Below, piece after piece: positions 14,426 through 62,624 of a stretch of DNA of 64,000 nucleotides; position 1 is the first letter of the stretch, and each line of letters starts with the position of its first letter. The DNA is taken from the NCBI GenBank assembly GCA_965248265.1, contig CBDFJF010000002.1, positions 2,190,699-2,254,698 of the forward strand, read 5' to 3'. Origin of the DNA: Candidatus Latescibacterota bacterium. Lineage in GTDB: Bacteria; Latescibacterota; UBA2968; UBA8231. The translations under genes and the position numbers were made by a program. The notes under the pieces were generated by a model. It did not search any database. It was given only the letters and a program-made list of their open reading frames with translations, and was not told the origin of the DNA.

Positions 14426-15193
14426 ATGGACGACACTATGACAGAAGAAGAGAGATTCCTCTTCGACCTCGAGGGTTACCTGGTGGTGCCCGGTGTGCTC
14501 TCATCGCAGGAAGTGACACAGCTGAACGAGCTCGCCGACGAAGCCTGGCCCGGAGAGCACGACGAAACAGGTTTGCGTCGCACGTCGAACGTGTCGCAGT
14601 GGGGACCCCGCTTCCGCGACCTCATCGACCATACCAACATCGTGCCGTATCTGATCGAGCTTCTGGGTCCCAAGTTCCGCATCGATCACGACTACTGCAT
14701 GTTCATGCGCCGCGGAACCTCTCGCAGCCGCCTGCATGGAGGTCCCTCACCGCATAGCTACGAAGGCGACCACTGGTATCGCTTTCACCCCGACGGCACG
14801 ATCCGCAATGGTCTCACCGTCTTCACATACAATCTGAGCGACTGCGGTCCGGAGGATGGTGGCTTCGCCTGCGTACCAGGCAGCCACAAAACCAATCTGA
14901 GGTCGGGCATTCCGCAGGACGTGATCCGCTTCGAACGGGATGCTCACTATGTGCGGCAGCCTCCCGTCAAGGCGGGAGACGTCATCATCTTCACCGAAGC
15001 GTTGGTGCATGGCACGCTGGCCTGGGATGCCGACCACGAGCGCCGGGCTTTGCTGTACAAATACAGCCCCGGGCACTCATCCTGGAGCAGCACCTACTAC
15101 GATCCCGATGACTACCCGGGCGCCACGGAGCAGCAGATTCGCATCATGGCGGCGCCCTCAGTGGGGTCCCGGCCCGATTCAGTGCAGGTATGA
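14426..15193 (+). CDS. phytanoyl-CoA dioxygenase (PhyH) family Fe(II)/2-oxoglutarate oxygenase
   Basis: MDDTMTEEERFLFDLEGYLVVPGVLS... with jelly-roll motifs (HxD...H). Start taken at the internal ATG 14426 rather than the track start 14339. Confidence 0.75.
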   Translation: MDDTMTEEERFLFDLEGYLVVPGVLSSQEVTQLNELADEAWPGEHDETGLRRTSNVSQWGPRFRDLIDHTNIVPYLIELLGPKFRIDHDYCMFMRRGTSRSRLHGGPSPHSYEGDHWYRFHPDGTIRNGLTVFTYNLSDCGPEDGGFACVPGSHKTNLRSGIPQDVIRFERDAHYVRQPPVKAGDVIIFTEALVHGTLAWDADHERRALLYKYSPGHSSWSSTYYDPDDYPGATEQQIRIMAAPSVGSRPDSVQV

Positions 15194-15387
15194 ATGGTAA
15201 GACGAACTGTGACAGCGGCGAAATGGGACGCTGCAGTTGTGCCGTCTGTGTCATCGTACGAAAACCATCCTCCCTCGCCGAATCCTGAGATGACGGGGAT
15301 CTGCGATCCCGCGGGCGAGATTGGCTGCGAGCAGCCGTCAGCAGTGCTCGTCGCTGGCCCCACGGATTGGGGGTAGGCTGTGCGGGG

Positions 15388-16557
15388 TTACGATGGGGTC
15401 GTTGCCAGGCGGCCCAGTCTGGCGTCTTCGGCGGCCAGCCATTCGTAGTAGGGCCGCGGCAGAGGCTCAGGCAAGCCCAGACCGGCTTCCTCCCGCCACC
15501 GCAGCAATGGGTTGCGGCGATCCTCCTGTGGCAGATCCACGCGGCAGCCGTACGCCCCCGATTCGAAAATGGCCATCAGGATCTCGATCACGTGCCGGGC
15601 CTCTTTGCCGCTGCACTCGTGCTCGCGATTCTGGTCCAGGGCCTGTACGTATTCGTCGGCAAAACAGTAGTCGGCTTCATCGGCTGCGCCGTCAGGGTCG
15701 TATGTTTGCGCTGAGATCGGTTCGAGCGCCTGCCATTGACCGTCGCCTGTTGGTACGTCGTGCGGGACCGGAAGGTAATACGCGGCTCCGCTCTTCCAGA
15801 ACAACCTGCCTTCCGTGCCGTAGATCTCCAGACAGTAACCTGTGGAATCCACTTTGGGGAAACGGTGCTGTAGCAGCGTTCCGGTGACGTTCCCCTCGAA
15901 CTCCAGTGACGCAGTCGCACGCTCTCCCGCCACGTACCCCATGCCGCTGGCGGCTGGAACCACGTCGTTCGGAGTGATACGGCGTCCGTCTGTGAGCACC
16001 GTCGACGAGACGCTGCGACAATGGCCGGCGACTCCGATAATGTTGTTGAGCATGTGGGTTCCGATGTTCCTCAGTCCGTAACCGGCGTAGTACCCCTTAC
16101 CGCTACCGAGGAGATACCTGAGCTCGCCGATGCGCCCTTCATGTAGCGCTCGCTGCACGGCTCTGAAATGCCCGCCTGTCCTGCCCTGGTGATGGACGGC
16201 GATTCGCACCCCTTGCGACTGCGCCCGTGCCAGTAGCTTGTCAGATTGCTCCAGATCGACGCACATCGGCTTTTCGACGTCGATGTGCACTTTGTGTTCG
16301 AGTACGCCCATGGCCAACTCGTAGTGAAACTCGGTCCCTGTCGGGATGGCGACGATGTCCGGCTTTGTCTGCTCGATCATCTCGTGGTAGTCGTTAAACC
16401 GCGCAGGTACACCGAATTCTTCCCCCATCGCATCGAGTCGTTCCTGGACCAGATCACAAAGGCCGACCAGCTCGGTGCGGAGGTGCTGATCGTATCCTCT
16501 GGCGGCAGCTGTCCCCCGTCCTCGACAACCCAGAATAGCCACACGATACATCTTCAC
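15388..16557 (-). CDS. Gfo/Idh/MocA family oxidoreductase
   Basis: MKMYRVAILGCRGRGTAAARGY... N-terminal Rossmann fold plus C-terminal alpha/beta domain. Confidence 0.8.
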   Translation of the reverse strand: MKMYRVAILGCRGRGTAAARGYDQHLRTELVGLCDLVQERLDAMGEEFGVPARFNDYHEMIEQTKPDIVAIPTGTEFHYELAMGVLEHKVHIDVEKPMCVDLEQSDKLLARAQSQGVRIAVHHQGRTGGHFRAVQRALHEGRIGELRYLLGSGKGYYAGYGLRNIGTHMLNNIIGVAGHCRSVSSTVLTDGRRITPNDVVPAASGMGYVAGERATASLEFEGNVTGTLLQHRFPKVDSTGYCLEIYGTEGRLFWKSGAAYYLPVPHDVPTGDGQWQALEPISAQTYDPDGAADEADYCFADEYVQALDQNREHECSGKEARHVIEILMAIFESGAYGCRVDLPQEDRRNPLLRWREEAGLGLPEPLPRPYYEWLAAEDARLGRLATTPS

Positions 16558-16761
16558 TTATCAACTCCTTTGTTCGCATCAGTAGAATAGTCGTCAACGA
16601 AGAGCTCGAGTCTGGATTCGATGTTTAGTGGTTGCATTCGTCTTAGGGCTAAATGGTGGCGACAGAGGAAATCGTCGAGGAGACCGACAAGTATTACGAC
16701 TGGCGCGGGCGGGGGATCTTGTGCAAGGACGTAATCAGCCCTATTCCTGTGGAATGCTGAC

Positions 16762-17376
16762 GTGCGCCAGAACCCCATAATGGCCCTTGCTGTGGCAGCG
16801 GAGAACGTCTTGGCAGAGCAGGCCAGCCGCGAGGGTTCCCTGGACATCGACTCCCGATTGCAGCTGTTCGTCGATGACTACCTGGTAGACGAGCTGCACG
16901 GGACTCGACTCGTCCTCCACCACCCTCGTCCGGCAGGGGTGGCCCTGAGATTCGATCGGCCCTGGGAGGGTGCCTTCTGTGCCTACGTGACCGTGCTCCA
17001 CGTCGGCGACATCTACCGCATGTACTACCGGGGACAGCCCAACGCCATGCCGGACGGAAGCTTTGGCGAGGTGACCTGTTACGCCGAGAGCCGTGACGGG
17101 ATCCACTGGGAGAAGCCCGATCTGGGGCTGTTCGAGGTCGCAGGGACGCGGAAAAACAACGTCGTTCTGGGCTCCGAGTATGCGCCCGTGCCCACAACTT
17201 CATCGCGTTCGTGGACACTCGGCCCGGGATTCCTTCCTCCCAGAGATACAAGGGCCTGGGGGGCATGTTCCCCATATCCGAGGAGCAGCGCTTCAGCAAC
17301 GGCCTCCTGGGCTTCACCTCCGCGGACGGGATCCGATGGAGGAAGATCCAGCAGGCACCGAGAATAGACAAATAAG
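16762..17376 (+). pseudogene. GH43/GH130-like beta-propeller family gene, frameshifted and truncated (paralog of 34166..35572 and 46788..48272)
   Basis: Frame 1 (LQLFVDDYLVDELHGTRLV...YVTVLHVGDIYRMYYRGQ...AESRDGIHWEKPDLGLFEV...VLGSEYAP) matches the N-terminal third of the 494-aa paralogs. The family-like sequence then continues in another frame (AHNFIAFVDTRPGIPSSQRYKGLGGMFPISEEQRFSNGLLGFTSADGIRWRKIQQAPRIDK*) and stops at ~17376, far short of the ~490-aa full length. Confidence 0.55.
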
Positions 17377-17713: not shown

Positions 17714-18799
17714 CTATCCGAGTCGCAGCGAGCGATCCTCCAATGGCAGATTGACCCGGACGTTTCCGCGGCGGTGGGATTCTCTCATGGCGATGGCGAT
17801 CTCCAGCGCTTCGCGGCCGAACTCGCCGGGGCAGATGCGCTCCTTCCCGGCATCGATCGAGCGGCAGACTCCTTCGATGGCGTCGACCATGGAGCTGCGC
17901 GGATGCCAGGGGTTGGGAAACTGGCGCTGCACCGACGCTCCCGTTTCAGGATCCGTCGTCCACAGCTCGAACTGCGCGTGAGCGTTGCGCGACACGATGC
18001 GGCCGACGTCGCCTATGAACTCATGCGTCCATTGGCGACCGCCGTCACTCTCGGATCGTGAGTTGAGAAAACCTCGGACGCCGTTTTCGTACACGATGTA
18101 CCCGGAGCCGCACAGATCGCTCTCGGCGACCGCCTCTGCGTCGCTGTCCATGTGGCCGAAGACCCATTGGGCCGGAGCGTCGGCGAACAGTCGCATCAGA
18201 GAGAGCATGTGGCTGCCCATGTTTGACAGACCTGAGGCGCTGTGGCAGATCATCGAGCGCAACTCGCCGATGGTGCCGTCGGCGATGGCCTGACGGGCGT
18301 TCGTATACCAGCCGTACCAGTTCAGGTGGCAGGCCATGGCGAGAATGGTGTTGTGTCGACGGCAGGCGTCGATCATGGCGTCCGCCTCGGCCAGGGTGCG
18401 ACACATCGGTTTGGTGGCGAAGATCGCTTTCACGCCTGACTCGGCCAGACCGACGACGACATCGGCCCGCTCCGCCGGCCGCGTGGTCACGGCGACGAGA
18501 TCCGGCTTCTCCTTCTCGACCATCTCGCGGTAGTCGAGGTAGAGCGCCTCGACCTTCCAGCGGCGGCGGAAGTCATCGAGCTTGGCCTGGTCGATGTCGG
18601 CCGCGGCCACGAGCTCGGCGCCGCGCGCCTCGATGATGGCCGGCGCGTGGGCCCACGGCCACGGATAGTGGGCCATGCCGATGTGCTCGTCGTCAATGGT
18701 GCTGCCCATGCGGCCGCAGCCGACGACGGCGGCGCGGTAGATTTTTGACGGCCGCGTCTCCTCGATAATGCGAAACGCTTCGCCTCGGACTCGAGCCAT
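17714..18799 (-). CDS. Gfo/Idh/MocA family oxidoreductase
   Basis: ...KIYRAAVVGCGRMGSTIDDEH... 361 aa. Confidence 0.8.
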   Translation of the reverse strand: MARVRGEAFRIIEETRPSKIYRAAVVGCGRMGSTIDDEHIGMAHYPWPWAHAPAIIEARGAELVAAADIDQAKLDDFRRRWKVEALYLDYREMVEKEKPDLVAVTTRPAERADVVVGLAESGVKAIFATKPMCRTLAEADAMIDACRRHNTILAMACHLNWYGWYTNARQAIADGTIGELRSMICHSASGLSNMGSHMLSLMRLFADAPAQWVFGHMDSDAEAVAESDLCGSGYIVYENGVRGFLNSRSESDGGRQWTHEFIGDVGRIVSRNAHAQFELWTTDPETGASVQRQFPNPWHPRSSMVDAIEGVCRSIDAGKERICPGEFGREALEIAIAMRESHRRGNVRVNLPLEDRSLRLG

Positions 18800-21288: not shown

Positions 21289-23274
21289 CTACCAGACGTG
21301 GACGCGGTGGCCCTCGTCGGGGAACCAGATGCCGTCGACGATGCCGGACAGTGCTACGGCCGCAGCGTAACCCAGGCCTAATCCGTAGAACAGGGGCTTA
21401 CCTCTCTGGTAAGCCTGCACCCCTCCGTAGCGCAGCAGGGCGGCCTTGATGACCCACACGAGGAGCAGGCTGAACCAGTAGTTTGCCGGGCCCGCGGCGT
21501 TCTGGAAGGCGAGACCGACTGGATGCAGCGGGAACCAGTGAAAGCGGCTGCGCAGATAGGCGAGAGCTCCGGCCTCTGACATGCCCGCCACCCACACGCC
21601 CCACTTGCCGATGTCGAACACCCTGGGATGCTGCACCAGGTTGGCAGTCTGTGGGTAGACGTTGAAAGCGTGGATCAGGTGGACGGCGCCCCCCTGGTCG
21701 TAGGCGACTTCGATGCTGGCCCAGGCCGCCACCAGGCAGCCGATCGTGAAGGCGATGAGGACGACGGCGCAGACGCGGCCGCGTTGCCGGCGCAGCGAGA
21801 ATATGCGCAGGTGGTGGGGGATCGCGGGCCAGGCCGGAAGGCGGATGTTGCCGAAGAAGGCCTGGCTCGTGAACAGCTTGAACGCCACCACGTTCTTCGT
21901 CGATAGGATGCTGGAGCCGACCAGTTCGGTGATGAAGGAGCCGCCCTTCATGTTGGCCCAGCTCGGCATCAGGTAGGGGAAGCCCGTGGCGGCGATCAGC
22001 TTGACCGTGACGAAAAACGTCATCGCCATGAGCAGGAACGTGCACACGGCTAGGGGCACCGTCGCCCCGAGGCTGACGCCGAAGCCGATGACGTAAACGG
22101 CTGACAACGTCATTCCGATGAAAGCAAGCCGATACATTCCGACCTGTCCGGCATCGCCGGTGCCGCCCCTGACCTGTCGCCAGACCTGGCCGAGATGGCG
22201 TCGCGCCAGCCATACCGACCAGATGGCGATGAGGACGATGGCGCCGAAACTCTCCAGATGCAGGATGTCGGAACTGATCAAGCGCTGGCCGGAAGCGCCG
22301 ACGCTGACCCCGAATTGATCCATGGCCCCCAACTTGAAGACGGAGAGCAGGTAGAAGAGGATGATGCTGCCCAGGATGTCGAGCGGGCACAGGTAGGTCA
22401 CCGCCAGCACAAGGGGCAGGATGCGGATGGTCAACGCCGGAAAGGGCTGCGGCAAGGGGATGGTGTAGCGCTCGCGGAAGACCTCCACCATGGGCGCGCC
22501 CGGGCTGAAATAGGTGGCGATGTTGTAGAGCAACGGCAGGAAGACGATGCCGAAGCCGGCCCAGAACAGACTGGAGCGGAACAGCTCCGGCATGCGCCGG
22601 GGACCGTCGAAGCCGCGCGTCAGTTCGAGGGGCATCTGAGCCAGTGGAAAGGTGAGCTTCTCGTTGTCCACCCACTGGCGGTGGAAGAGGATCATCAGAC
22701 AGAGTCCGAACACGACCATGGCCAGCGAAGCTCCGCCCCACTGCGCGATGATGCCGATCCACACGTCCCACGGAATTGAAGCGCCATCCGGCAGGCCCAG
22801 CCACAGGGGATCGATGACGCGTGGCTCGGGCCCGGGAAAGGCGTTCCACGGCATGAAGGGGACGATGAGGGTGTCCCACTGGTTCTCCGGCGTCGGCATG
22901 AAGGACGGCGCGCCCAGTATGGCGACCCAGTAGTCGCTCCACCCCCACATCGGCAGCGCCCCGACGATCCAGGTCATCGAGAACACGGTGAGCAGCTCGC
23001 CGCGACTCAGGGCCACGCGCGGCCACACCCGTTTGAGGGCCACGTTGAAGAACAGCCACAGCACGAAGGGGATGACGGCCACCATCGGGTACTGCGACTG
23101 CACGAGGTTGATCCCCATGAACAGGATCAGGTAATAGAACCAGACTGCGATGGTAACGGCCCCGACGAGGACTCCGCGCCAGGTGATCGTCAGCTTGTCG
23201 TCTTCGGCCGGTAAGTCAGACCCCCGACTCGCGTGGGGCTGGGTTACGTCAGCTGCTTGAGCGGGGTCGGGCAA
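21289..23274 (-). CDS. uncharacterised polytopic membrane protein (~14 TM), paralog 1 of a two-member family in this window
   Basis: 661 aa, highly hydrophobic with many predicted TM helices. It shares conserved blocks with 31916..33832, e.g. TPENQWDTLIVPFMPW versus TPENNWETLIHPHIPTW, VALSRGELLTVFSMTWIVGALP versus LALKREELALIFVMMLVSASIP, and similar C-terminal tails. The start appears to be TTG (no in-frame ATG before the first TM helix). The 553-aa alternate-frame ORF 21398..23059 is a GC artifact. Confidence 0.6.
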   Translation of the reverse strand: MPDPAQAADVTQPHASRGSDLPAEDDKLTITWRGVLVGAVTIAVWFYYLILFMGINLVQSQYPMVAVIPFVLWLFFNVALKRVWPRVALSRGELLTVFSMTWIVGALPMWGWSDYWVAILGAPSFMPTPENQWDTLIVPFMPWNAFPGPEPRVIDPLWLGLPDGASIPWDVWIGIIAQWGGASLAMVVFGLCLMILFHRQWVDNEKLTFPLAQMPLELTRGFDGPRRMPELFRSSLFWAGFGIVFLPLLYNIATYFSPGAPMVEVFRERYTIPLPQPFPALTIRILPLVLAVTYLCPLDILGSIILFYLLSVFKLGAMDQFGVSVGASGQRLISSDILHLESFGAIVLIAIWSVWLARRHLGQVWRQVRGGTGDAGQVGMYRLAFIGMTLSAVYVIGFGVSLGATVPLAVCTFLLMAMTFFVTVKLIAATGFPYLMPSWANMKGGSFITELVGSSILSTKNVVAFKLFTSQAFFGNIRLPAWPAIPHHLRIFSLRRQRGRVCAVVLIAFTIGCLVAAWASIEVAYDQGGAVHLIHAFNVYPQTANLVQHPRVFDIGKWGVWVAGMSEAGALAYLRSRFHWFPLHPVGLAFQNAAGPANYWFSLLLVWVIKAALLRYGGVQAYQRGKPLFYGLGLGYAAAVALSGIVDGIWFPDEGHRVHVW

Positions 23275-50562: not shown

Positions 50563-50674
50563 CGGTCTCTGAGCCCGTCGACTATCATGTTCAGACCTCC
50601 GTAAACACGAGTCAGATCGTCGTCGCCGTACCACGCCGCCCACGGAAGCATGACACTTGACAATCCCGGCCCTG

Positions 50675-51973: not shown

Positions 51974-51981
51974 GACGTCAC

Positions 51982-52420: not shown

Positions 52421-52504
52421 AGCGTATAGTTTGTGATGCTCGGCATGAATATATCAGATGCACAACATCCGGTCAGCCGATAGACATACATTCGAGGAGA
52501 GACC

Positions 52505-53227: not shown

Positions 53228-53303
53228 TCGAATTGCCCGCTACTGATGGGACTGGTGCCCCAAAAATCAAAGGTCTTCAATTAAACGTTCTCCCGTCGCG
53301 CGC

Positions 53304-54137
53304 TCACTCTGCAAGATGCCGGAACAGGGGTTTCACCTCGTCGCTCAGCGCCGCGAAGACGTCCTTGGGAATTCGGGAAAGGTTCGCAGCCTTCCCTGCC
53401 CTCTCCACCACCATGCTCATGTTCTCGGGCGTACCCTCAATCTCGGGATTCAGATTGATCCACCAGGGTCCATAGCGGACCGAAATGGCGACGCGTGGCT
53501 CGGTGCTGCGGTTCGGCGCCACTGCGTGCCAGAGTCGGCTGTCATAGATCAAGACGCTGCCCGGATCGCCGGTAGCGGAAACCTCGGTGAGATATGGAGC
53601 ATCCCGATCGACGCCGTTGTCCCCGGAAGGGTTGTTGCTGGATCGATGGCTTCCAGGCACCAAGAAGGTGCCGCCGTTCTCGGCGTTGAATGGTGTCAGC
53701 ATCCAGATGGTGCTCAGATGCATCAGTGTGTCGGGATAGGGAGCCTCGATCCGTGCCGAGTTCGTCTGGTTGTAGGGCCAGTCGGCGTGCCAGTATCCGC
53801 GATCGTTACCTGGATGGGTGACGATCCCGCCGGCGCTCGAGATCCGCACGTCCGGGCCGAAGAAAGCCTCTGCCGTTCCGAGAACGCGGGGATCAGCCAG
53901 GTAGGCTGCGAATTCCTGAGTCGAGTTGATCAGAGACGTGCTGAAGGTGACCCCTTGAGCACCGACCCGATGTCCTTTGCTACGGATCTCTTCTTGGCGG
54001 CGCTGATTGATTTCTGCTTCACGCGCGTGGACTCGAAGCACACCTTGTTTGACACCATCGATCTGGTCGTCGGGAATGACGTCCTCGATCACGCAGAAGC
54101 CGTCCAGCTTGATGTGGTTTACTATGGTTTCGACCAT
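53304..54137 (-). CDS. phytanoyl-CoA dioxygenase (PhyH) family oxygenase
   Basis: 277 aa with jelly-roll His/Asp...His motifs (WHADWPYN..., ...LWHAVAPN). Confidence 0.75.
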   Translation of the reverse strand: MVETIVNHIKLDGFCVIEDVIPDDQIDGVKQGVLRVHAREAEINQRRQEEIRSKGHRVGAQGVTFSTSLINSTQEFAAYLADPRVLGTAEAFFGPDVRISSAGGIVTHPGNDRGYWHADWPYNQTNSARIEAPYPDTLMHLSTIWMLTPFNAENGGTFLVPGSHRSSNNPSGDNGVDRDAPYLTEVSATGDPGSVLIYDSRLWHAVAPNRSTEPRVAISVRYGPWWINLNPEIEGTPENMSMVVERAGKAANLSRIPKDVFAALSDEVKPLFRHLAE

Positions 54138-54150
54138 GCTGTCCTGAGTT

Positions 54151-54978
54151 TCATGAAGTGAATGGAAGAACAGCGTCGCGCATCTTGATCGTCTCTGTCA
54201 TAACATCGCACTTGTCCATGTCCCAGAATTCTTCGTGTTCGTACTCCAGAGTCGCGTAACCATCGTACCCGGTGTCCTGCAGGCGGCGCATCAGATCTGG
54301 AAAGTTGATCTCGCCTTCATCCCAGCGCGCTTGAATCTTTTTGTTGGCCCCCTGGCGCAGGTGCACGTGCCCGGCGTAGGGCAGCAGTGCATGCAGTTCG
54401 TCTTCCTTGTGGCCGATCGAGACGCAGTGAGCGTAGTCGATGCAGATCTTCAGATCCGGGTTCTGTTCCAGGAATTTCAGGGTTTCGTCCGGCCGCTCTA
54501 TGACCGACTCCCGGTGTGGCTCGAACACCATTTCGATACCGACGGCCGTCGTGATCTCAGCCGCGGCATGCAGTTCATCGGCGGCGATGCATTGCGAATC
54601 CTCGCGACTCATGCCCTCGTTCTCGACTCCGGGAAGCAGGGTAAGCGATTTCAGGCTGGCAGCGGCGCAGAAATCGGCGATGTGCCTGATCCGGTCCCTG
54701 TTCCGTTCGCGCACGGTGGCATCGGACGAATTGATAGCATTATCGCCAAACCCCTCACCCAGCAGGACGATCAGGTTGATTAGCTCGATGTCGAGATCCC
54801 GCACTTTTTTCGCCTGGCCCTGCGGATCGGCCCTCAGGCTGTCGGCCGTCAGCGCCGCGCCCGGCATGGCGATCAGGTCCATGGCTTCGACTCCAAGCGC
54901 CTTGTAAATACTGGCCGATTCGGCGAAGGAGGCTCCGACCCATGTCCACTGAGCTCCTGCCAGCACGATCTTGCTCAT
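54151..54978 (-). CDS. sugar phosphate isomerase/epimerase (xylose-isomerase-like TIM barrel)
   Basis: ...GYDGYATLEYEHEEF... with typical metal-binding Glu/Asp/His positions. 275 aa. Confidence 0.75.
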   Translation of the reverse strand: MSKIVLAGAQWTWVGASFAESASIYKALGVEAMDLIAMPGAALTADSLRADPQGQAKKVRDLDIELINLIVLLGEGFGDNAINSSDATVRERNRDRIRHIADFCAAASLKSLTLLPGVENEGMSREDSQCIAADELHAAAEITTAVGIEMVFEPHRESVIERPDETLKFLEQNPDLKICIDYAHCVSIGHKEDELHALLPYAGHVHLRQGANKKIQARWDEGEINFPDLMRRLQDTGYDGYATLEYEHEEFWDMDKCDVMTETIKMRDAVLPFTS

Positions 54979-55022
54979 TGCTCATCCCTGTGAAATTGTA
55001 TGTGCAGTCAGTCCCGTTTTAT

Positions 55023-55832
55023 TCATCCCGTCCCCGGAACTGCTGCCGTGCTCGTCATGCCGCCGTCCACATCCAGCGCCGTACCGGTGATGAAAGCGGA
55101 GGAGTCTTGTATGAAAAACAGGATGGCGTTGACGACATCGTCCTCGGAGCAATTGCGCCCCAGGGGAATATCCACAGCCGTGGCAGCCTTCACCTGCTCG
55201 GGTGAGAGTCCGGTCGCTTTCGTTTTCCATTCGAGGACGAATTCGCCCATACCAGTAGTCGGACAACCGACGGGACAGACGCAGTTGACGGTCACCCCGT
55301 CGTCGGCCAGCTCGCCGGCGATCGACTTCGTCAGGCCGACGACCCCGAATTTGGCTGCCACATAGGATGTGACCATCGGCCAACCGATTTTCGAAGCGTC
55401 CGAACCGATGTTGACGATGCGCCCACGGCCACTCGCGCACAACAGCGGGGCCGACCTTTGTGAGCACAGGAAGGTCCCCTTGAGGTCGACGTCGATGGTG
55501 CGATCCCACTCCTCTTCCGCCGTGTCGACGAACCTCGAAAACTCCAGGATACCGGCGCAATTCACGAGTGTATCAAGCCCGCCGAATGCATCCTGGCATG
55601 CGGCCACTGCTGCTTCTACTGAAGACGTGGACGTGACGTCCAGGCGCAACGTCAGCAGGCGATCGTTATCGAGGGTCGCGGCAGCGCTTTGCAGCTTGCC
55701 TTCATCGACATCGCCGATGGCAACCTGAGCCCCCTGGTTGAGCAAGGCACGGGCGGTTGCACAGCCGAAACCACTGGCACCGCCGGTGATGAGGGCTCGC
55801 CGGGGTCGGTCCTGAGAATTTGCGTTGGTCAT
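55023..55832 (-). CDS. SDR family oxidoreductase
   Basis: ALITGGASGFGCATARAL (TGxxxGxG) and YVAAKFG (YxxxK). ATG at 55832. Confidence 0.8.
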   Translation of the reverse strand: MTNANSQDRPRRALITGGASGFGCATARALLNQGAQVAIGDVDEGKLQSAAATLDNDRLLTLRLDVTSTSSVEAAVAACQDAFGGLDTLVNCAGILEFSRFVDTAEEEWDRTIDVDLKGTFLCSQRSAPLLCASGRGRIVNIGSDASKIGWPMVTSYVAAKFGVVGLTKSIAGELADDGVTVNCVCPVGCPTTGMGEFVLEWKTKATGLSPEQVKAATAVDIPLGRNCSEDDVVNAILFFIQDSSAFITGTALDVDGGMTSTAAVPGTG

Positions 55833-55926
55833 GTTCTCTGACACGGGTGCAGATGGGCGGTGCATCTGATTGTCTCGCGTGAGAAATCTAATGACACTCA
55901 GGTTACGTTCCAACCCTGGTAAGCGT

Positions 55927-56790
55927 TTAAATCCCTACGCCGAACTCGCTCTCGAACTCCACCCAGATCTCCGCCGGAACCCCCTGCGTGGCTGCTTTGT
56001 AGGCGTCCTCGAGTTGGCTGCGGTTCGCCGGCCCACTCATGACGATACCGTCAATCGGCGCGTCGAGACAGAACTCCATCGCCAGGTGTTTGATGTCGAC
56101 GCCGTTCTCCTGACACCACTGCCACATGGCGTGCGCGCGTGGTTTTTCGATCCTATCCGGTTCGACTCCGGTCAGACTTCCCATGCCGAACACACTGGCC
56201 AGGATCAGCCCGACGCCGTGTTGCTTGGCCAGAGGCATGGTCGTGCGCGCGACCGACTGGTTGAGCAGCGTGTAGTCCAGAAAAGTCAGAACGACTTCGG
56301 CGTGGCCGGCTTCGATGGCGGCTCGGTGGAAGTCTTGCTCGCGTACGCCCAGGCCGAGGTGCCGTACCAGTCCCTCCGCTTTCATTTTTTGCAACTCGTC
56401 AAAAGCCCGGTCGGGACCCAGGGGATCCTCGATCGTGAGCGGATCGTGGACCAGGACCGAATCAAGGTAGTCCACTCGCAGCTGGCGCAGGCTGTTTTCA
56501 ACGCTCCAGCGGGTCGCCTCTGCCGAGAAATCCTTCGGCCGGTCGGGGTGCGGACCCACCTTCGCTTGCAGGTAAAAGGTCGAACGCTCAACACCTGATA
56601 GGGCCTGACCCCAACGCTCTTCACCTCGGCCAGCGTAGGTGTCGAAGAAGTCGATACCCAGCTCGAGAGCACGCTCGACCGTGGCGATTGTCTCAGCCTC
56701 TGGGGCCTGACTGACAAACGCGGCGCCCATGCCCAGCGCTCGCGGCCGCATCTCTGTCCTGCCCATTCGTCTTCGTGGTAGTTCGATCAA
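55927..56790 (-). CDS. aldo/keto reductase
   Basis: 287 aa AKR TIM barrel (...GIDFFDTYAGRGEERWGQAL...). Confidence 0.75.
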   Translation of the reverse strand: MIELPRRRMGRTEMRPRALGMGAAFVSQAPEAETIATVERALELGIDFFDTYAGRGEERWGQALSGVERSTFYLQAKVGPHPDRPKDFSAEATRWSVENSLRQLRVDYLDSVLVHDPLTIEDPLGPDRAFDELQKMKAEGLVRHLGLGVREQDFHRAAIEAGHAEVVLTFLDYTLLNQSVARTTMPLAKQHGVGLILASVFGMGSLTGVEPDRIEKPRAHAMWQWCQENGVDIKHLAMEFCLDAPIDGIVMSGPANRSQLEDAYKAATQGVPAEIWVEFESEFGVGI

Positions 56791-56980
56791 TCAGGATCCC
56801 TCCTGCGGTCGCGAGCGAGTGGCGCTGAGGCAACCGCCGACGGTGTGATCAACTTGCTTCCGACCGTGGGACTGATCGATCGTCGTACTGCCGCCGAAAA
56901 CGGTATCGTGAATTCGTGTCGCAGTGTGGTGAGGAATGGGCCCGAGGGTAGACGTGCTCAAGGTCAGGACCGGATTGACC

Positions 56981-57592
56981 TTATGACATACGGTTGGCCT
57001 TGGGTGAGCCGACCACGTAGTCGCCGCCGCTGGCCTTGGCTTGGTAGAGGCGGTCGCAGAGTTCGTTGTAGAGCTTGTCCGTCGTCTCGCTGATCTTCAC
57101 TTTATCTATCTCACCAGTTATTTCGGCCGTGCCTACGCTACACGTCATACCCTTGAATTCAACCCCGTCGACGCTGAAGCTCTCATCTCTAAACAGATTT
57201 TTTACCGTCGCGGCACGACGCTTGGCATAGCCTTCGGTTTTAGTCGGGATCACGATGGCGAAGTTGGCGCCGTCGCAATGGTAGAGACGCTCACCGGACT
57301 CGAGTTGGTTCTTAAAAAATTGAGAAAACTGTTGGATGAGGTGGTCGCCAACGACCCGGCCATGGCCTTGGTTAATATCGCCGAGTTTATCGGGACAGAT
57401 CAGCATGCAGGCGAGGGCGAAGGTCGAGCCCTTGTCCTTGATCAGCTCTTTGGGCAAGACGACCTGGAAGAGCATCAGATTGTTGGGCAACTTGGATAGA
57501 CGGTTGACACCAGCCAACCGCATCCACTTCCGGTTTTCTTCCTCGAGTCGTTGGACGCGGGCTTTGAGCTGATTGAGAGATTGCTCGGCCAT
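56981..57592 (-). CDS. coiled-coil + degenerate GGDEF-domain protein (CDGAN in place of GGDEF; probably non-cyclase)
   Basis: 203 aa. N-terminal QLKARVQRLEEENRKW coiled coil, then GGDEF-fold blocks: ACMLICPDKLGDINQGHGRVVGDHL (the D-x-D...GD pocket), RLYHCDGANFAIVIP (in place of RYGGDEFaillP), MTCSVGTAE, DRLYQAKASGGDYVV. GC content is visibly lower (~52%) than in the flanks. Confidence 0.6.
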   Translation of the reverse strand: MAEQSLNQLKARVQRLEEENRKWMRLAGVNRLSKLPNNLMLFQVVLPKELIKDKGSTFALACMLICPDKLGDINQGHGRVVGDHLIQQFSQFFKNQLESGERLYHCDGANFAIVIPTKTEGYAKRRAATVKNLFRDESFSVDGVEFKGMTCSVGTAEITGEIDKVKISETTDKLYNELCDRLYQAKASGGDYVVGSPKANRMS

Positions 57593-57751: not shown

Positions 57752-59182
57752 TCACTGGCCGAACCCTCGAAAGCCAGGAACGACTCCCAATTCCTCGCGC
57801 AGCCCAAGGCATTCCACCTCCCACTGATCCACGCGCCGCCGCAGATCCGAGACCTCCGGCGGCTCCCGGCGCTTCCCGCTGCCGACCAGGTTCACTAGTT
57901 CCCCCGGATCCTGGAGCAAGTCGTAGGCCTCGTCACCGTAGTCTGGGTCTCGAACGTAGGAGAATGCCGCGGTGCGTACCCCCTGTACAAGCCCGGGATG
58001 CCTGCCGGCCAGCGGCAGGCCCGACGGCATCGTGGTCCCCAGCGAGCCGTGATACTCACCGACTTGAGCGAATACCGCATCGCGGAGAGGTCCGCGCAAC
58101 CCGCCCCGGAGCCATGAAACCAGATCGTGGCCCTGCGCGTACGCGGGGACCGGTGCACCGGCGAGCGTCAGTATGGTCGGGAACAGGTCCACGTGGTCTA
58201 CCAAGCCGGTAACCCTGCCGCCTCTGTTCCACTGGATATTCGCGGGAGGAACGATGATCAGCGGAACGTGAAGCAGACACTCGTACAGGGATTCGGTCTT
58301 GGTGAAGAGACCTTTCTCGCCGGCATAGTCGCCGTGATCAGAGCCGATAATGATCCAGGTGTTCTCGAGCAGTCCTCGTCGACCCATCTCTTCGCACAGG
58401 CGGCGCATCTGCGCATCGGCGTAGGCCAACATTCCCAGGTATACTGCCACCATCTTCACGATGTCGTTTTCAGTCGCCTTCTCCGTCCCCATCTGCTCGC
58501 GGGCCATGATCTGCCACTCTGGCCGGCCGCTCCCACCTTGCGCCGGAAGATCTACCGAGTCAGTCCGCACGAGGGTGTCATACGGTGGACTCGCAAAGTA
58601 GGGAGGATGCGCCTCGAGCAAGGCGAGGTGCAGGAAGTAGGGCGCGTCCGTCGATTCGATGCCGTCCAGTGCCTCGATGGTCCTGGAGACCAGCCGGTGG
58701 GCATGGCCCTCCTCCGGGGGATATTCCAGGGTGCCTGAGGACCACCCGACGTCCGAGTCTCCGTGTGAATACCAGAGCTTGAGTGCCTCGCCGACCGGGC
58801 CGTTCTCCTTCATGCTGATCTGCTCCTGCCATCCGCGCGTCAGCTCCCTGTCGTGCTCGTAGTGTCCCACCGCCGCGGTGTAGTAGCCCTGGCTGTCGAG
58901 CAGCTCGGAGAGCTGCGGCAGATTGTCCGGTGCCCGGTTCTGGTGACAGGTCACCTGGTGGACCAGGGGATGAACACCGGTGAACACCGACGCTCGGGAG
59001 GGCGTGCAGATGGGGCTGGTGGAGTAGGCCTGCTCGAACGACGTCCCCCGAGCTGCCATGGCGGTCATGAACGGGGTCGGAAAATGAACCCCGGAGGCCG
59101 AGGCCTTTTGCTGGTCGGTCATCAGGTAGAGGATATTGGGACGGTTGCCTGCCCCGCGTCCGCGGCTGCGCTCAGGGGCCAT
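57752..59182 (-). CDS. arylsulfatase-family sulfatase (formylglycine-dependent)
   Basis: CTPSRAS (C-x-P-x-R) motif and NILYLMTDQQ. No signal peptide, so apparently cytoplasmic. Confidence 0.8.
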   Translation of the reverse strand: MAPERSRGRGAGNRPNILYLMTDQQKASASGVHFPTPFMTAMAARGTSFEQAYSTSPICTPSRASVFTGVHPLVHQVTCHQNRAPDNLPQLSELLDSQGYYTAAVGHYEHDRELTRGWQEQISMKENGPVGEALKLWYSHGDSDVGWSSGTLEYPPEEGHAHRLVSRTIEALDGIESTDAPYFLHLALLEAHPPYFASPPYDTLVRTDSVDLPAQGGSGRPEWQIMAREQMGTEKATENDIVKMVAVYLGMLAYADAQMRRLCEEMGRRGLLENTWIIIGSDHGDYAGEKGLFTKTESLYECLLHVPLIIVPPANIQWNRGGRVTGLVDHVDLFPTILTLAGAPVPAYAQGHDLVSWLRGGLRGPLRDAVFAQVGEYHGSLGTTMPSGLPLAGRHPGLVQGVRTAAFSYVRDPDYGDEAYDLLQDPGELVNLVGSGKRREPPEVSDLRRRVDQWEVECLGLREELGVVPGFRGFGQ

Positions 59183-59319: not shown

Positions 59320-60267
59320 TCAGCCGTCTTGGTCCGAGGTGGCGAGTCGGAAACCCACAGTCTCCCGCGTATGCGTCTCCGGCGCGCTGCTGCGATGCGT
59401 CGTGCGTACATTGGGTCGAGTCTCGCCGAAGAACCCCCCGCGGATCACTCGTTCCTGACCGCCCTCCGGTCCTTTCGGGTTAACGGCCGGACTGAACTGG
59501 TAGTAGCTCTCTTCGTAGTAATCCCAACACCACTCGTAGACGTTGCCAGACATGTCCCAGACTCCGAACGGGCTGCGGCCCAAAGGAAACTCGTCGACGG
59601 GCAAGGTCGTGCCCACCATGTTGTTGGAGTTGCAGCGCTCGCCATCAACGAATCGGTTGCCCCAGGGGTACAGACGTTCATCGTCGCCGCGCGCCGCAAA
59701 TTCCCATTCGGCTTCGGTGGGCAATCGAGCGCCCATCCAGTCGGCGTACGCTCTGGCATCGTGGTAAGAGACGTTGACGACAGGATGCCGCGCCAACCCG
59801 GCGGGATAGGTTCCCCTCTGCCAGTGGATCGGTGTGACTTGACCGGTGCAATTGACGAACTCGCGGTAGTCTTGGTTCGTCACCGGATAGGTGTCGATGT
59901 AGAAGGAGGATAGTTGGACCAGGTGAGAGGGGCGCTCATTGTCCGGTGAGTCTTCCTCGCGGCCCCCCATCGAGAACGAACCTCCTTCGATGTGGATCAT
60001 CCTCCTCTTGTTGGCTTCGGGCAGCAACTCTACCCGGGCCTGCTCGAGCTCCTCCATCTGCAGATCAACATCATCCTGACGACTCATTATCTGAACAACA
60101 TCCTCTTTGATCTTGCCCAAACGCACTTCCATTTCCCGCCGCCGAGTCTCCTGGTGGTCGATCGCCTCCATAAGCTTCTTCGACGGTTTGTTAAAATCTA
60201 GCAGGAGCATGACAAAGTACAGACTGACAGCACAGGTCAATATCCACCACATCCAGCTGTCAGCCAT
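59320..60267 (-). CDS. formylglycine-generating enzyme (SUMF1/FGE) family protein with N-terminal TM helix and coiled coil
   Basis: FGE-sulfatase domain blocks (RGGSFxxxxxxxRxAxR-like tail ...VIRGGFFGETRPNVRTTHR; WEFAARG; NVYEWCWD). N-terminal MADSWMWWILTCAVSLYFVMLLL is a TM helix followed by a heptad-like charged segment. Confidence 0.8.
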   Translation of the reverse strand: MADSWMWWILTCAVSLYFVMLLLDFNKPSKKLMEAIDHQETRRREMEVRLGKIKEDVVQIMSRQDDVDLQMEELEQARVELLPEANKRRMIHIEGGSFSMGGREEDSPDNERPSHLVQLSSFYIDTYPVTNQDYREFVNCTGQVTPIHWQRGTYPAGLARHPVVNVSYHDARAYADWMGARLPTEAEWEFAARGDDERLYPWGNRFVDGERCNSNNMVGTTLPVDEFPLGRSPFGVWDMSGNVYEWCWDYYEESYYQFSPAVNPKGPEGGQERVIRGGFFGETRPNVRTTHRSSAPETHTRETVGFRLATSDQDG

Positions 60268-60625: not shown

Positions 60626-61804
60626 CTAGGCGCGCTGCGGCCGCACCGCGAGGGCAAGACTCGAAGACCACACCAGCGGCGCCACAGTCGTGGCGGCCAT
60701 GGCCCAGCGCAGTCCGACGAAATCCGCCGTCATGCCGAAGGCGACCGGTCCGGTGAGGGCGCCGAGCAGACCCACGCTGTTGAGGGTGGCGAACATGGCA
60801 CTGCCGGCCGTCGGGAAGCGGTCCCCGGCATGGCCGTTGACCGACGGATAGATGCCCGATACGGCGAAGCCGAGCACGGAAAGCCAGGCCACCACGGCGA
60901 GTGGGTGATCGTGCCAGGCGGCCAACGGGGCGCTGATCAGGCAGGCCAGGCCGGCGGCGAGGACGACGGTCCGCAATCCGAAACGGCGCACCGCACGTGG
61001 CATCGTCAATCGGCCCACGGCCATCACCAGTGCGTAGACCAGCAGGCCGACGGCGCCGAATGAGCGGCTGCTGCCGATGCCGATCTCGAGATAATAAGGC
61101 AGCCATTGGGCGGCAGTCACTTCGGTGATGGTCGTGAAGAACAGACCCAGGATCAGAAGTTTGAAGCTCGCGTGACGGGCTATCTCCCAGAACGAGATGC
61201 GCTCGCCCGACCGTTCCGCTCGCGCCGCCCGCCGTCCGGGCATGCATTTGAGCAGGGCCACAGGCGCATACAGCAACATCAAAACGGCGAACAGTCCGAA
61301 GAGGCTGCGCCAACCGACGTCGAGTTGGTAGGCCACCAGCACGAGCAACAGGATGACGCACACGCCGATATACCAGCTGGCGTGGTGGATGCTGGCGACG
61401 CGGACGCGATTCTCGGCATACAGGTCGCACACGAGAGCCGTCATCGGCGCCGACACCATGCCGCGCCCCAGTCCCGTGATCGTGCCTCCCGCCAGCGCGT
61501 GCAGTGGCTCGCTCGCCGCCGCGACGAGGACGAGACCGGCGGCCTGCAGCAGCGAGCTGACCAGCATCTGCAATCGGTACCCGAGCCGATCGACCAGCCA
61601 CCCGGAGCCGAGGCTGGTGAGTGCCGAGCTGCACACGGGCGAGCTCAGGAACAGTCCCTTGTACAGCTCGGTGTCCATTCCGAGTTCGGCGGCGATGACG
61701 CTGAGGCACGAGGCGGCCCCCAGCATCATCATGCTGCCGGCGGCCATCGTGTAACAGGCGACGGCCAGGATGATCCCGCGCGAATCCGGCGCGCATGGTG
61801 TCAT
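60626..61804 (-). CDS. MFS transporter
   Basis: 12-TM pattern. Start MTPCAPDSRGIILAVACYTMAAG (ATG 61804); the track start 61918 is rejected. Confidence 0.75.
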   Translation of the reverse strand: MTPCAPDSRGIILAVACYTMAAGSMMMLGAASCLSVIAAELGMDTELYKGLFLSSPVCSSALTSLGSGWLVDRLGYRLQMLVSSLLQAAGLVLVAAASEPLHALAGGTITGLGRGMVSAPMTALVCDLYAENRVRVASIHHASWYIGVCVILLLVLVAYQLDVGWRSLFGLFAVLMLLYAPVALLKCMPGRRAARAERSGERISFWEIARHASFKLLILGLFFTTITEVTAAQWLPYYLEIGIGSSRSFGAVGLLVYALVMAVGRLTMPRAVRRFGLRTVVLAAGLACLISAPLAAWHDHPLAVVAWLSVLGFAVSGIYPSVNGHAGDRFPTAGSAMFATLNSVGLLGALTGPVAFGMTADFVGLRWAMAATTVAPLVWSSSLALAVRPQRA

Positions 61805-61865
61805 TCTCTCCGATCCCCTTGATTTGCCCGACGGAAACGTTGTCTGATCACCAGCCCGGCAGCTG

Positions 61866-62624
61866 TCAGAGCTTCCCCTCCGCTTCCCGCTGGGCCGCAA
61901 GCTGCCTGCGGTAGGCATCCCGCCGCTGTGTGTCTATGATGGCGCGCTTTGCGTGATAGACAAAACCGAGTGCAGTTCGGGGCCGATCGCTGGGATTGGC
62001 ATCGGCGCGGTGGATGATCAAACTGTGGTGGACGATGAGATCCCCGGGCTCGACGATCATCGACACCTCGGCGGCAAAATCTTCATCGCCGAAATCCGTG
62101 ATACCCTGAGAGAACCCGATGACCCCGCTCCGTCTGTGAGGTCTCAAACCGCGCCGGTGAGAGCCTGGGATATAGCGGATGCAGCCATTCTCTTCGTCTG
62201 CGGCGTCGATCGCCAGCCACATCGTCAGCGCCTCGTTCGGCTCCAGCATGAAATAGAACCCGTCCTGGTGAGGCGGGGTCGCCTGGCCGATCCGCGGTGG
62301 TTTGCTCATCCACTGCATCGCCGACTCTCGGGCTCCGTCCAGGAGGTGATGGGCAAGTCCGAAGAACTGTTCGTCGTTGTAGAGCTCGTTGAAGTAGTCG
62401 TCGTGCTCCGCCATCGCGCTCAGGCGCATGATGGTCTCGGTATCGTCCTTGACTTCGTAGAACGCCTCGTCATTCGGCAGCCCTGGCAATACGTCGGTCA
62501 CGTAACGCTCGACATTTTCGCGCACCTGTGCGGTTTCCTCCGCACTCAAGTAGTTGCGCAGGATGATGTACCCATCCCGGTCGAAGTCCCGTTTGATCTT
62601 TTCTGCGTTCTGTTTCCAGTCCAT
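61866..62624 (-). CDS. phytanoyl-CoA dioxygenase (PhyH) family oxygenase
   Basis: MDWKQNAEKIKRDFDRDGYIILRNYLSAEE... ATG at 62624. Confidence 0.75.
   Translation of the reverse strand: MDWKQNAEKIKRDFDRDGYIILRNYLSAEETAQVRENVERYVTDVLPGLPNDEAFYEVKDDTETIMRLSAMAEHDDYFNELYNDEQFFGLAHHLLDGARESAMQWMSKPPRIGQATPPHQDGFYFMLEPNEALTMWLAIDAADEENGCIRYIPGSHRRGLRPHRRSGVIGFSQGITDFGDEDFAAEVSMIVEPGDLIVHHSLIIHRADANPSDRPRTALGFVYHAKRAIIDTQRRDAYRRQLAAQREAEGKL

Follow-up and report, generated by a model that had tools for sequence, protein, structure and literature searches.

We asked what four genes of the PhyH family (Pfam PF05721) do in a part of the genome of a Candidatus Latescibacterota bacterium that is rich in genes for glycan and sugar catabolism. 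The DNA is a stretch of 64,000 nucleotides of contig CBDFJF010000002.1 (positions 2,190,699 to 2,254,698, assembly GCA_965248265.1), which we call the window, and the genes are numbered PhyH1 to PhyH4 along it. An earlier reading of the letters alone (the sequence-only reading) had taken the four for Fe(II)/2-oxoglutarate (Fe/2OG) oxygenases scattered through a sulfated-glycan island, and had proposed that they hydroxylate or oxidatively desulfate sugars. All four genes sit in sugar-catabolic neighbourhoods, a pattern that recurs for the orthologues of PhyH2 and PhyH1, and we see about an even chance that the four proteins act in the cytoplasm on imported small molecules derived from glycans. 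The hypothesis of sugar hydroxylation or tailoring is reasonable, drawing on the enzyme family, the glycan context and the recurrence across lineages of two of the four genes, whereas the framing as desulfatases is weak, and so is the argument that the grouping of the genes is unlikely to be due to chance.

All four open reading frames (ORFs) were present on the strands and at the coordinates proposed earlier (Table 1). When they were scored against Pfam, each exceeded the PF05721 gathering threshold of 22 bits, with matches that span profile positions 1-213. The start sites chosen in the sequence-only reading fit the lengths of database homologues: the longest ORF of PhyH1 begins at 14339 and homologues favour Met 14426 or 14438 as the start, and PhyH4 equals its orthologues in length (252 aa). 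Proteins 100% identical to PhyH2 (P0261, 311 aa) and to PhyH3 (P0121, 277 aa) are on record, both from the same contig. The facial triad and the arginine that binds 2-oxoglutarate are canonical in PhyH2, PhyH3 and PhyH4, and PhyH1 carries a HygX-type variant of the triad together with the arginine. In PhyH2 the ligands H129/D131/H214/R225 are invariant in the orthologue group; those of PhyH3 (H117/D119/H204/R215) are kept in 121/121 sequences; in PhyH4, H119 and R216 are kept in 121/121 and D121 and H205 in 120/121. Judged by these residues, PhyH1 to PhyH4 are intact, functional-looking PhyH-family Fe(II)/2-oxoglutarate oxygenases. The pairwise identity among them is 20-23%, indicating that they are ancient paralogues and not recent duplicates. 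The orthologue groups of the four are distinct and broadly conserved, close homologues number from hundreds to thousands per protein, and no characterised member was found in any group. No obvious signal peptide was seen by eye at the N-termini of the PhyH proteins, and the same was true of the sulfatase and of most of the proteins in the window that resemble carbohydrate-active enzymes (CAZymes). The PhyH proteins are therefore probably cytoplasmic and would process imported fragments.

The four proteins were placed by hidden Markov model scores against curated cut-offs, by PDB sequence searches and by fold searches. The solved relatives that act on sugars were HygX, EvdO2, SnoK/N and PHYHD1 for PhyH1 and PhyH4 and, more weakly, KanJ for PhyH3. 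HygX, EvdO and AviO form sugar orthoesters, and SnoK and SnoN modify an amino sugar; HygX, EvdO1/2 and AviO1 act on C-H bonds of the sugar ring. The best solved relative of PhyH1 was HygX (4xc9/4xcb, E 4e-12; HygX is also solved as 4XCA), with which it shares an unusual iron site. The PhyH1 segments LHGG and TEALVHG align residue for residue with LHGG and NEALMHG of HygX, so that the site reads H104-x-G106...E191-x3-H195 plus R206, with the acidic ligand relocated as in HygX. This variant is conserved in the PhyH1 clade (H in 89/91, G in 74/91, E in 83/91 and H in 87/91 sequences). The relocated-carboxylate triad H-x-G...E-x3-H has been described as a peculiarity of HygX, the orthoester synthase of hygromycin B (2026 review, PMC13374393). 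The shared site does not imply that PhyH1 forms orthoesters. Identity of HygX and the EvdO enzymes to PhyH1 and PhyH4 is only ~25-30%, Lys137 of HygX, which lies near the iron, corresponds to Val in PhyH1, and the Pfam scans of the window ORFs found no aminoglycoside cluster. HygX belongs to an antibiotic biosynthetic cluster, whereas PhyH1 and its orthologues at 44-67% identity are surrounded by catabolic genes for dehydrogenases, lactonases, dehydratases and sulfatases.

In the window PhyH1 is monocistronic and is flanked by GH2 and GFO_IDH_MocA (GFO) oxidoreductase genes on the opposite strand. Its clade comprises 777 clusters at E <= 1e-10 among representatives at 50% identity, and orthologues 44-67% identical to it are found in numerous marine metagenomes and in some from soil. 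We surveyed the neighbourhoods of 80 such metagenome loci. The neighbours were MR_MLE dehydratases (14 loci), short-chain dehydrogenases/reductases (SDRs, 11), GFO oxidoreductases (9), sulfatases (9), PhyH4-like proteins (8), major facilitator superfamily (MFS) transporters (7) and TauD-family proteins (7), and in addition SMP-30 lactonases and aldo/keto reductases (AKRs). By their family assignments, these neighbours are the predicted toolkit of non-phosphorylative catabolism of sugars and sugar acids. The PhyH1 loci frequently hold 2-4 PhyH genes. We also observed that true TauD-family genes (PF02668, 207 bits) adjoin PhyH genes in five loci (L128, L129, L132, L148 and L168), so that both Fe/2OG families share several marine metagenome neighbourhoods.

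PhyH2 provided the second recurrent context. We examined 80 PhyH2 loci from named genomes (L007-L086), almost all of them metagenome-assembled genomes of Candidatus Poribacteria, Latescibacterota, Caldilineaceae and other Chloroflexota, Spirochaetia, Opitutales, Moanabacter and Gemmatimonadaceae. PhyH2 is ~70% identical across Poribacteria, Latescibacterota, Chloroflexota, Spirochaetia, Verrucomicrobiota and Gemmatimonadota, and its closest match among the GTDB species representatives is at 72%. The median identity between phyla (70-73%) is not below the medians within Chloroflexota or within Latescibacterota. This flat identity across phyla points to strong constraint, to horizontal spread among sponge-associated bacteria, or to both. 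Gene order around the orthologues takes several unrelated forms. The 14 Caldilineaceae loci have two Polysacc_deac-like genes, a sulfatase, a CUT1 binding protein, two permeases, GFO, PhyH2 and an aldehyde dehydrogenase (ALDH), in this order. One poribacterial arrangement runs PhyH, PhyH, SDR, PhyH2, GFO, an unknown gene, Amidohydro_2, epimerases, cupins and an alcohol dehydrogenase. Another poribacterial order begins with Amidohydro_2, Rieske, SDR, a thiamine pyrophosphate (TPP) enzyme, PhyH2, a DMFA2_C-like gene and fam3 (a family of ~500-aa proteins described below), and continues with PhyH, a 2-hydroxyacid dehydrogenase, an HpcH aldolase and finally GFO. The Spirochaetia loci have PhyH2 between a pair of ABC importers and several fam3 genes, and a sulfatase as well. 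One and the same GFO family (fam1) adjoins PhyH2 in Poribacteria of type A and in Caldilineaceae, in differing orders, and lies two genes from it in Opitutales and Moanabacter. This recurrent PhyH2-GFO pairing is the strongest sign in the gene neighbourhoods that two of the predicted enzymes may be functionally coupled.

Could PhyH2 and its GFO partner be a catabolic counterpart of KanJ and KanK? The amino or N-sulfo group would then be removed from a de-N-acetylated amino sugar and the keto-sugar would be reduced, a possibility to which we give only a small chance. KanJ, a dioxygenase of the PhyH type, deaminates an amino sugar oxidatively (2'-amino to 2'-oxo), after which KanK reduces the resulting keto compound (PMC5533434); a dioxygenase followed by a keto-reductase resembles the recurrent PhyH2-GFO pair, adjacent or two genes apart. 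Deacetylases are near (the two Polysacc_deac genes of the Caldilineaceae operon, and PIG-L in the window), the window encodes a heparinase II/III-like lyase and an SGSH_C-type sulfatase, and KanJ is among the solved relatives of PhyH3, as a weak one (E 3e-6). However, KanJ is biosynthetic and the similarity is distant: the PDB sequence search gave no match between PhyH2 and KanJ, and in the window no GFO gene stands beside PhyH2. A sugar 1- or 3-dehydrogenase that serves another step would fit the GFO partner just as well. The solved relatives of PhyH2 itself were DhiD, TlxI and EctD (E 6e-8 to 7e-6), and its AlphaFold2 (AF2) model, which is mediocre (mean predicted local distance difference test score, pLDDT, 61), matched SptF, TlxI, AsqJ and EctD best in Foldseek.

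The preferred reading, action on imported glycan-derived molecules, can be put as a series of steps. The substrates would be an imported mono- or oligosaccharide, an amino sugar or a sugar acid, released from glycans. Each PhyH protein would introduce a hydroxyl at a C-H bond adjacent to a heteroatom substituent, and this would strip or alter an O-methyl, amino or sulfate decoration, or activate the sugar. The decoration would otherwise block the surrounding dehydrogenase (GFO/SDR/AKR), lactonase, dehydratase and aldolase routes. Carbonyl products might be handled by the nearby GFO, SDR, AKR and ALDH enzymes. For PhyH2 and GFO this would amount to a two-step logic in which the dioxygenase makes a keto-sugar and the reductase restores the hydroxyl.

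Several observations weigh against this reading. PhyH3 is the last gene of an AKR-SDR-TIM barrel-PhyH3 run, with the TIM-barrel gene 13 bp upstream; the latter has only weak NCBIfam matches (hydroxypyruvate isomerase, oxo-tetronate isomerase, IolE-like). The PhyH3 orthologues at 79%, 62%, 56% and 55% identity lack the TIM, SDR and AKR partners and have no conserved partners. They are frequently near transposases, and one lies amid planctomycete-type PSD, PSCyt and DUF1501 genes. PhyH4 is the first gene of a PhyH4-MFS run, which is followed by the genes for a formylglycine-generating enzyme (FGE) and a sulfatase. The PhyH4-MFS pair is kept only in L001, a contig 95-99% identical to the window at the nucleotide level, whose PhyH4 is 94% identical. 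The orthologue at 72% identity sits among transposases without the MFS gene, and those at 56% and 57% lie beside SDR and BNR_2 genes or beside two Amidohydro_2 and two CBM9 genes, respectively; the 56-57% loci (Latescibacterota, Gemmatimonadota) have an upstream aminotransferase-epimerase pair in common. As for PhyH2, in Latescibacterota it adjoins Cus-type efflux genes, an uninformative context, and the Caldilineaceae ALDH that follows it scores 707 bits against a cut-off of 730 for L-piperideine-6-carboxylate (P6C; aminoadipate-semialdehyde) dehydrogenase, which hints at amino-acid or betaine-aldehyde chemistry and makes a non-sugar substrate possible for PhyH2. The GFO, SDR, AKR, sulfatase and Amidohydro_2 families are themselves very abundant in these genomes. 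Finally, all four PhyH proteins fall far below every NCBIfam equivalog cut-off, and their substrates are not readable from sequence. The context recurs for PhyH2 and PhyH1, but it is not conserved for PhyH3 and only loosely so for PhyH4. Separately, the same 94% identical PhyH4 gene was found again in a second context rich in insertion sequence (IS) elements (L002). The ALDH that directly follows PhyH2 in the Caldilineaceae loci L052, L056, L062, L071-L074, L077, L081 and L082, at ~10.9-12.5 kb of these loci, is of the ALDH7/antiquitin type, although the rest of the operon looks sugar-related.

Do the four genes then form one unit? The close relative L001 speaks against it, as it joins the segment corresponding to 50.6-53.2 kb of the window directly to an inverted 62.7-60.6 kb segment. 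The PhyH3-TIM-SDR-AKR cassette (53.3-56.8 kb) is missing from L001, the 56.9-62.7 kb segment is inverted, and IS elements (DDE_Tnp_ISAZ013, DDE_Tnp_1) replace the FGE gene of the window. As L001 is rearranged and lacks the PhyH3 cassette, the four PhyH genes are not a conserved unit. None of the 80 PhyH2 loci holds orthologues of all four genes. We therefore rejected the idea of one coordinated island or system of four PhyH enzymes, of which this near-identical relative would lack one cassette.

We also asked whether four PhyH copies in one window call for an explanation at all. No Pfam family is more abundant in Poribacteria than PF05721, which made up >1.9% of their genes as against <0.05% in the other genomes then available (Kamke et al. 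2014, PMC3909097). Of the 53 ORFs in the window, 4 are PhyH genes. In the 10-kb flanks of the 80 PhyH2 loci we counted 42 further PhyH genes in 1287 ORFs (3.3%). With base rates of >1.9% (published) and 3.3% (flanks), the Poisson probability of at least 4 PhyH genes among 53 ORFs was 0.02-0.10. At these rates one or more such windows are expected per 4-Mb genome, and the four copies in 64 kb are not clearly above chance. The claim that the co-localisation is unlikely to be chance thus ignored the known expansion of the family, and the arrangement differs in L001. The likeness to the poribacterial expansion goes further: there too, sponge-symbiont genomes have many diverse PF05721 genes each, and PhyH2, PhyH3 and PhyH4 have poribacterial or latescibacterial orthologues. 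PhyH1 to PhyH4 are drawn from the large PhyH repertoire that is typical of marine bacteria of the sponge-symbiont type, in which the PhyH-rich lineages include Poribacteria, Latescibacterota, Caldilineaceae and some Spirochaetia and Opitutales.

This repertoire gives rise to a second explanation, the main rival, which we regard as somewhat unlikely: the four enzymes would act on non-carbohydrate substrates of the host or of seawater (phosphonates, osmolytes or betaines, amino acids, nucleosides), and their proximity to glycan genes would be incidental, since both PhyH and glycan genes are very numerous in these genomes. The copy-number estimate above, the unconserved contexts of PhyH3 and PhyH4 and the rearrangement in L001 are in its favour, as are the P6C dehydrogenase-like gene beside PhyH2 in Caldilineaceae and an amino-acid permease that adjoins some PhyH1 orthologues. 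In Poribacteria, 305 PhyH sequences fall into 193 clusters, and the sole function assigned to them is PhnY-like, for the use of 2-aminoethylphosphonate (PMC3909097). However, it is hard to put down to chance that PhyH2 and GFO adjoin in differing orders in Poribacteria and Caldilineaceae (and lie two genes apart in Opitutales and Moanabacter), or that PhyH2 lies inside a compact operon with a sugar-type ABC importer, a sulfatase and deacetylases; the PhyH1 orthologues, too, recur with genes of sugar-acid pathways. Moreover, none of the four has PhnZ, ectABC or acyl-CoA genes as neighbours.

Known functions of the family were considered as well. The sequence-only reading had allowed that all four proteins might fall into clades of known unrelated function; none does. 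EctD, PhnY and PhnY* are, like the four, bacterial PhyH-family proteins, and hydroxylate small polar molecules, but the matches are weak (21-48 bits against cut-offs of 336-500). With the EctD model (TIGR02408), PhyH2, PhyH3 and PhyH4 scored 21-44 bits against 336.5, EctD being a weak relative of PhyH2 and PhyH3 in particular, and PhyH1 gave no match at E <= 0.01; no ectABC genes are present. With the PhnY/PhnY* model (NF052437), PhyH1 scored 23 and PhyH4 48 bits against 500, PhyH2 and PhyH3 gave no match at E <= 0.01, and no PhnZ gene (the HD-domain neighbour) was found beside the PhyH genes in the window. The halogenase model TIGR01762 gave 16-30 bits for PhyH2, PhyH3 and PhyH4 against a cut-off of 226 and no match at E <= 0.01 for PhyH1, in which the conserved E-x3-H provides a carboxylate; carrier-protein and non-ribosomal peptide synthetase (NRPS) genes, as expected for a halogenase of the SyrB2/CytC3 type, are absent. 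The PtlH model gave 42 bits against 550. Phytanoyl-CoA 2-hydroxylase (PHYH) was matched by PhyH4 alone, and only in its C-terminal half (2a1x, E 1e-14); there is no acyl-CoA or lipid catabolic context, as the sequence-only reading had said, and no lipid-metabolism genes, including acyl-CoA ligase and beta-oxidation genes, were found in the window. On scores and gene context we thus rejected lipid, ectoine, phosphonate and halogenase functions.

A secondary-metabolite function was rejected on the same grounds. A pathway of the orthosomycin/aminoglycoside or meroterpenoid kind is suggested by the best PDB matches, which are biosynthetic (HygX, EvdO2, SnoK/N, SptF, TlxI/J, AsqJ); PhyH3, for example, has SptF, DhiD and KanJ as solved relatives (E 4e-9 to 3e-6), and its AF2 model (pLDDT 84) matched SptF, DhiD, TlxJ, FtmOx1 and AsqJ best in Foldseek. 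But identities are 17-30%, the bias of the PDB toward biosynthetic enzymes accounts for the matches, and the neighbours are catabolic enzymes and importers. The window has no polyketide synthase, NRPS, terpene synthase, glycosyltransferase or sugar-nucleotide biosynthesis cluster. We consider such a pathway extremely improbable.

The solved relatives of PhyH4 were EvdO2 (5e-20), PHYHD1 (2OPW, 8e-20), PHYH and SnoK/N (to 2e-12), and it shares with PHYHD1 an H-Q-D motif. PHYHD1, FJS and a poribacterial homologue, all of the same Pfam family, demethylate the 2'-O-methylribose of nucleosides, an activity that is widespread among divergent PF05721 members, the active enzymes being very divergent; human PHYH is inactive on these substrates (PMC12709175). 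We compared the window proteins with five tested demethylases (plant, Fadolivirus, Poribacteria, Acidisoma, S. colocasiae), whose sequences were obtained by optical character recognition from the supplement of the paper. PhyH4 is 24-32% identical to the five, the figures being 27% (240 aa aligned) for the tobacco enzyme, which is active, and 32% (115 aa) for that of Fadolivirus, and none is orthologous to it. PhyH1, PhyH2 and PhyH3 are more weakly similar (~20-30% over shorter stretches). PhyH4, and possibly others of the four, could thus be an O-demethylase for 2'-O-methyl nucleosides or O-methylated sugars imported by the MFS transporter encoded directly after it, which we think quite unlikely. 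Against it stand the low identity, the similar scores of EvdO2 and of the inactive human PHYH, the loss of the MFS pairing in the 72% and 56-57% orthologues and the lack of nucleoside-salvage genes nearby; the context of PhyH4 consists of glycan genes and a transporter.

The remaining proposal, oxidative desulfation after the manner of AtsK, would have the sulfate-bearing sugar carbon hydroxylated, the sulfate released and a carbonyl left behind. We hold it to be highly unlikely. The chemistry exists in the wider Fe/2OG superfamily (AtsK, Rv3406; PMC5066984), the nearby GFO, SDR, AKR and ALDH enzymes could process a carbonyl product, and sulfatases are frequent beside PhyH1 and PhyH2 orthologues. 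AtsK and Rv3406 share with the four proteins the Fe/2OG double-stranded beta-helix and the H-x-D/E...H logic, but belong to PF02668, not PF05721. AtsK defines the SulfAtlas family S2, which is related to TauD/TfdA and includes proteins of at least 30% identity to AtsK over ~300 residues, and S2 activity is known on alkyl sulfates alone, not on sugars (PMC5066984). The TauD Pfam model (PF02668) had no match at E <= 0.01 in any of the four, none of the four PDB searches (one per protein) gave an AtsK or Rv3406 chain at E <= 0.01, and Foldseek searches with the PhyH2 and PhyH3 models gave neither AtsK nor TauD among the 50 best matches. The four thus lie outside the definition of S2, and the analogy drawn in the sequence-only reading comes down to chemistry and a fold shared at the level of the superfamily only. 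In addition, the same loci already encode hydrolytic sulfatases, so that an oxidative route is unneeded, and in some PhyH1 loci true TauD-family genes are separate neighbours.

The gene content of the window supports the glycan context in part. The window has a G+C content of ~62%, and an ORF map guided by codon bias gave ~50 genes; ORFs other than PhyH1 to PhyH4 were scanned with Pfam, NCBIfam and PDB profiles (Table 1). The glycosidases comprise a GH106-like giant, BNR_4, GH127 and GH2, and other genes encode three GFO_IDH_MocA oxidoreductases, Amidohydro_2, a PIG-L deacetylase, a DHDPS-family aldolase/dehydratase, two AKRs, an SDR, a xylose-isomerase-like TIM barrel and a class-III aminotransferase. 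The lyase, glycosidase, sulfatase, transporter and isomerase genes that the sequence-only reading had placed beside the PhyH genes are indeed there, and the richness in glycan and sugar catabolism stands. The word 'sulfated' does not, as there is only one sulfatase with one FGE, and the label of a sulfated-glycan island was overstated. A Bacteroidota-type polysaccharide utilization locus (PUL) with a SusC/SusD pair is not present, since no TonB-dependent receptor or SusD family appeared in the Pfam scans of the window; the transport candidates are the DUF6785/6784 and MFS proteins.

Table 1. Features of the window; positions are counted from its first nucleotide
Feature	Position	Strand	Evidence and remarks
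GH2-like glycosidase	11554-13713	-	Glyco_hydro_2_C, Glyco_hydro_2_N; divergent from PhyH1
PhyH1	14426-15193	+	PF05721, 54.5 bits; HygX-type iron site LHGG...TEALVHG
GFO_IDH_MocA oxidoreductase	15388-16557	-	PF01408, 76 bits; convergent with PhyH1
fam3, short copy	16762-17367	+	
Second GFO_IDH_MocA oxidoreductase	17714-18799	-	Pfam scan
GH156-like candidate exosialidase, 545 aa	18826-20463	-	phmmer to 6rzd, E 6.5e-15; no significant Pfam match
DUF6785+DUF6784 paralogue	21289-23274	-	paralogue of 31916-33919
Heparinase II/III-like lyase	28413-30677	-	Hepar_II_III_N, Hepar_II_III_C; divergent from PhyH2
PhyH2	30925-31860	+	PF05721, 58.2 bits; 311 aa; canonical WHPD...H...R site
DUF6785+DUF6784 membrane protein	31916-33919	-	PF20581, 424 bits; convergent with PhyH2
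fam3	34088-35572	+	~500 aa, without Pfam match; GH130/GH117/GH32-like beta-propeller
fam3 paralogue	46788-48272	-	
Second heparinase II/III-like lyase	48277-50700	-	Pfam scan
MlrC_C-only fragment	51982-52506	-	174 aa
PhyH3	53304-54137	-	PF05721, 84.0 bits; 277 aa; WHAD...H...R
Xylose-isomerase-like TIM barrel (AP_endonuc_2)	54151-54978	-	PF01261, 96 bits
SDR	55023-55913	-	Pfam scan; upstream in PhyH3 run
Aldo/keto reductase	55927-56790	-	Pfam scan; upstream in PhyH3 run
Formylglycine (FGly)-type sulfatase	57752-59182	-	CTPSR motif, SGSH_C domain
FGE	59320-60267	-	with 57752-59182, sole sulfatase pair in the window
MFS transporter	60626-61918	-	MFS_1, 108 bits; directly downstream of PhyH4
PhyH4	61866-62624	-	PF05721, 121.8 bits; 252 aa; PHQD...H...R; PHYH/PHYHD1/EvdO2-like
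HigB-like/HTH_3 ORF	63418-63978	-	186 aa; toxin domain (residues 16-72), antitoxin-type domain (115-165)

Some of these genes deserve a comment of their own. A profile built from 15 fam3 members matched the GH130 PH1107-related glycosidase 5a7v (E 2e-7) and, more weakly, GH117/GH32 beta-propellers, suggesting that fam3 may be a new family of glycoside hydrolases or phosphorylases. In four phyla, namely Poribacteria, Spirochaetia, Latescibacterota and Dehalococcoidia, members are found next to orthologues of PhyH2 (L016, L023, L036, L045, L054 and others). The two large DUF6785/6784 proteins are encoded in the part of the window that has the lyase, deacetylase and PhyH2 genes, and the Moanabacter locus L083 has one near PhyH2 as well; they are candidate oligosaccharide transporters. 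The structure matched by the GH156-like protein (6rzd) is an exosialidase from an uncultured bacterium, and BNR_2 sialidase-like genes lie near PhyH3 and PhyH4 orthologues (L003, L087, L088); the GH156-like protein and these BNR_2 neighbours hint at a possible use of sialoglycans. The MlrC_C-only fragment is probably a truncated pseudogene, as L001 has a full 497-aa DUF1485+MlrC protein in its place. The HigB-like/HTH_3 ORF represents a toxin-antitoxin fusion or, alternatively, two genes that were joined in the ORF reading. Three stretches have a lower G+C content (0.55-0.59 as compared to ~0.62-0.65 elsewhere) and may be recent acquisitions: 7909-11427 (BNR_4 and GH127), 37120-39903 (a 927-aa spermine-synthase-like protein) and 50000-57000 (from the aminotransferase to the AKR).

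Finally, we asked what is new here. The PhyH expansion in sponge symbionts and the action of PhyH-family enzymes on sugar moieties are already known. PhyH orthologue groups that are recurrently embedded in sugar-catabolic operons, the cross-phylum PhyH2-GFO pairing and the large environmental HygX-type clade appear to be undescribed in the searchable literature. Kamke et al. (2014) describe no link to glycan loci, no cross-phylum PhyH2 group and no HygX-type clade (PMC3909097), and a search of the literature for PhyH together with sulfatase, polysaccharide or PUL gave nothing relevant. These three observations are leads, not demonstrations. The boldest form of the argument would combine a PhyH2-GFO catabolic module spread horizontally among the phyla of sponge symbionts, which removes amino, N-sulfo, O-sulfo or O-methyl groups from a host-glycan sugar and reduces the keto product, with a PhyH1 clade that extends the HygX-type site from antibiotic biosynthesis into sugar catabolism; in this full form we judge it unlikely.

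In Poribacteria no gene family has expanded more than PF05721, which is also abundant in other lineages of sponge symbionts and marine heterotrophs. The strongly conserved PhyH2 group, with its GFO partner and compact operon, and the PhyH1 clade in its catabolic contexts offer entry points into it. If the preferred reading is not true, the window adds four further members to a known expanded family. If the PhyH2-GFO module and the role of the PhyH1 clade are real, they would explain the PhyH expansion of sponge symbionts in biochemical terms for the first time, and if such enzymes do strip sugars of methyl, amino or sulfate decorations, they would form an oxygen-dependent layer of marine and host glycan degradation that is missed by censuses of CAZymes and sulfatases.

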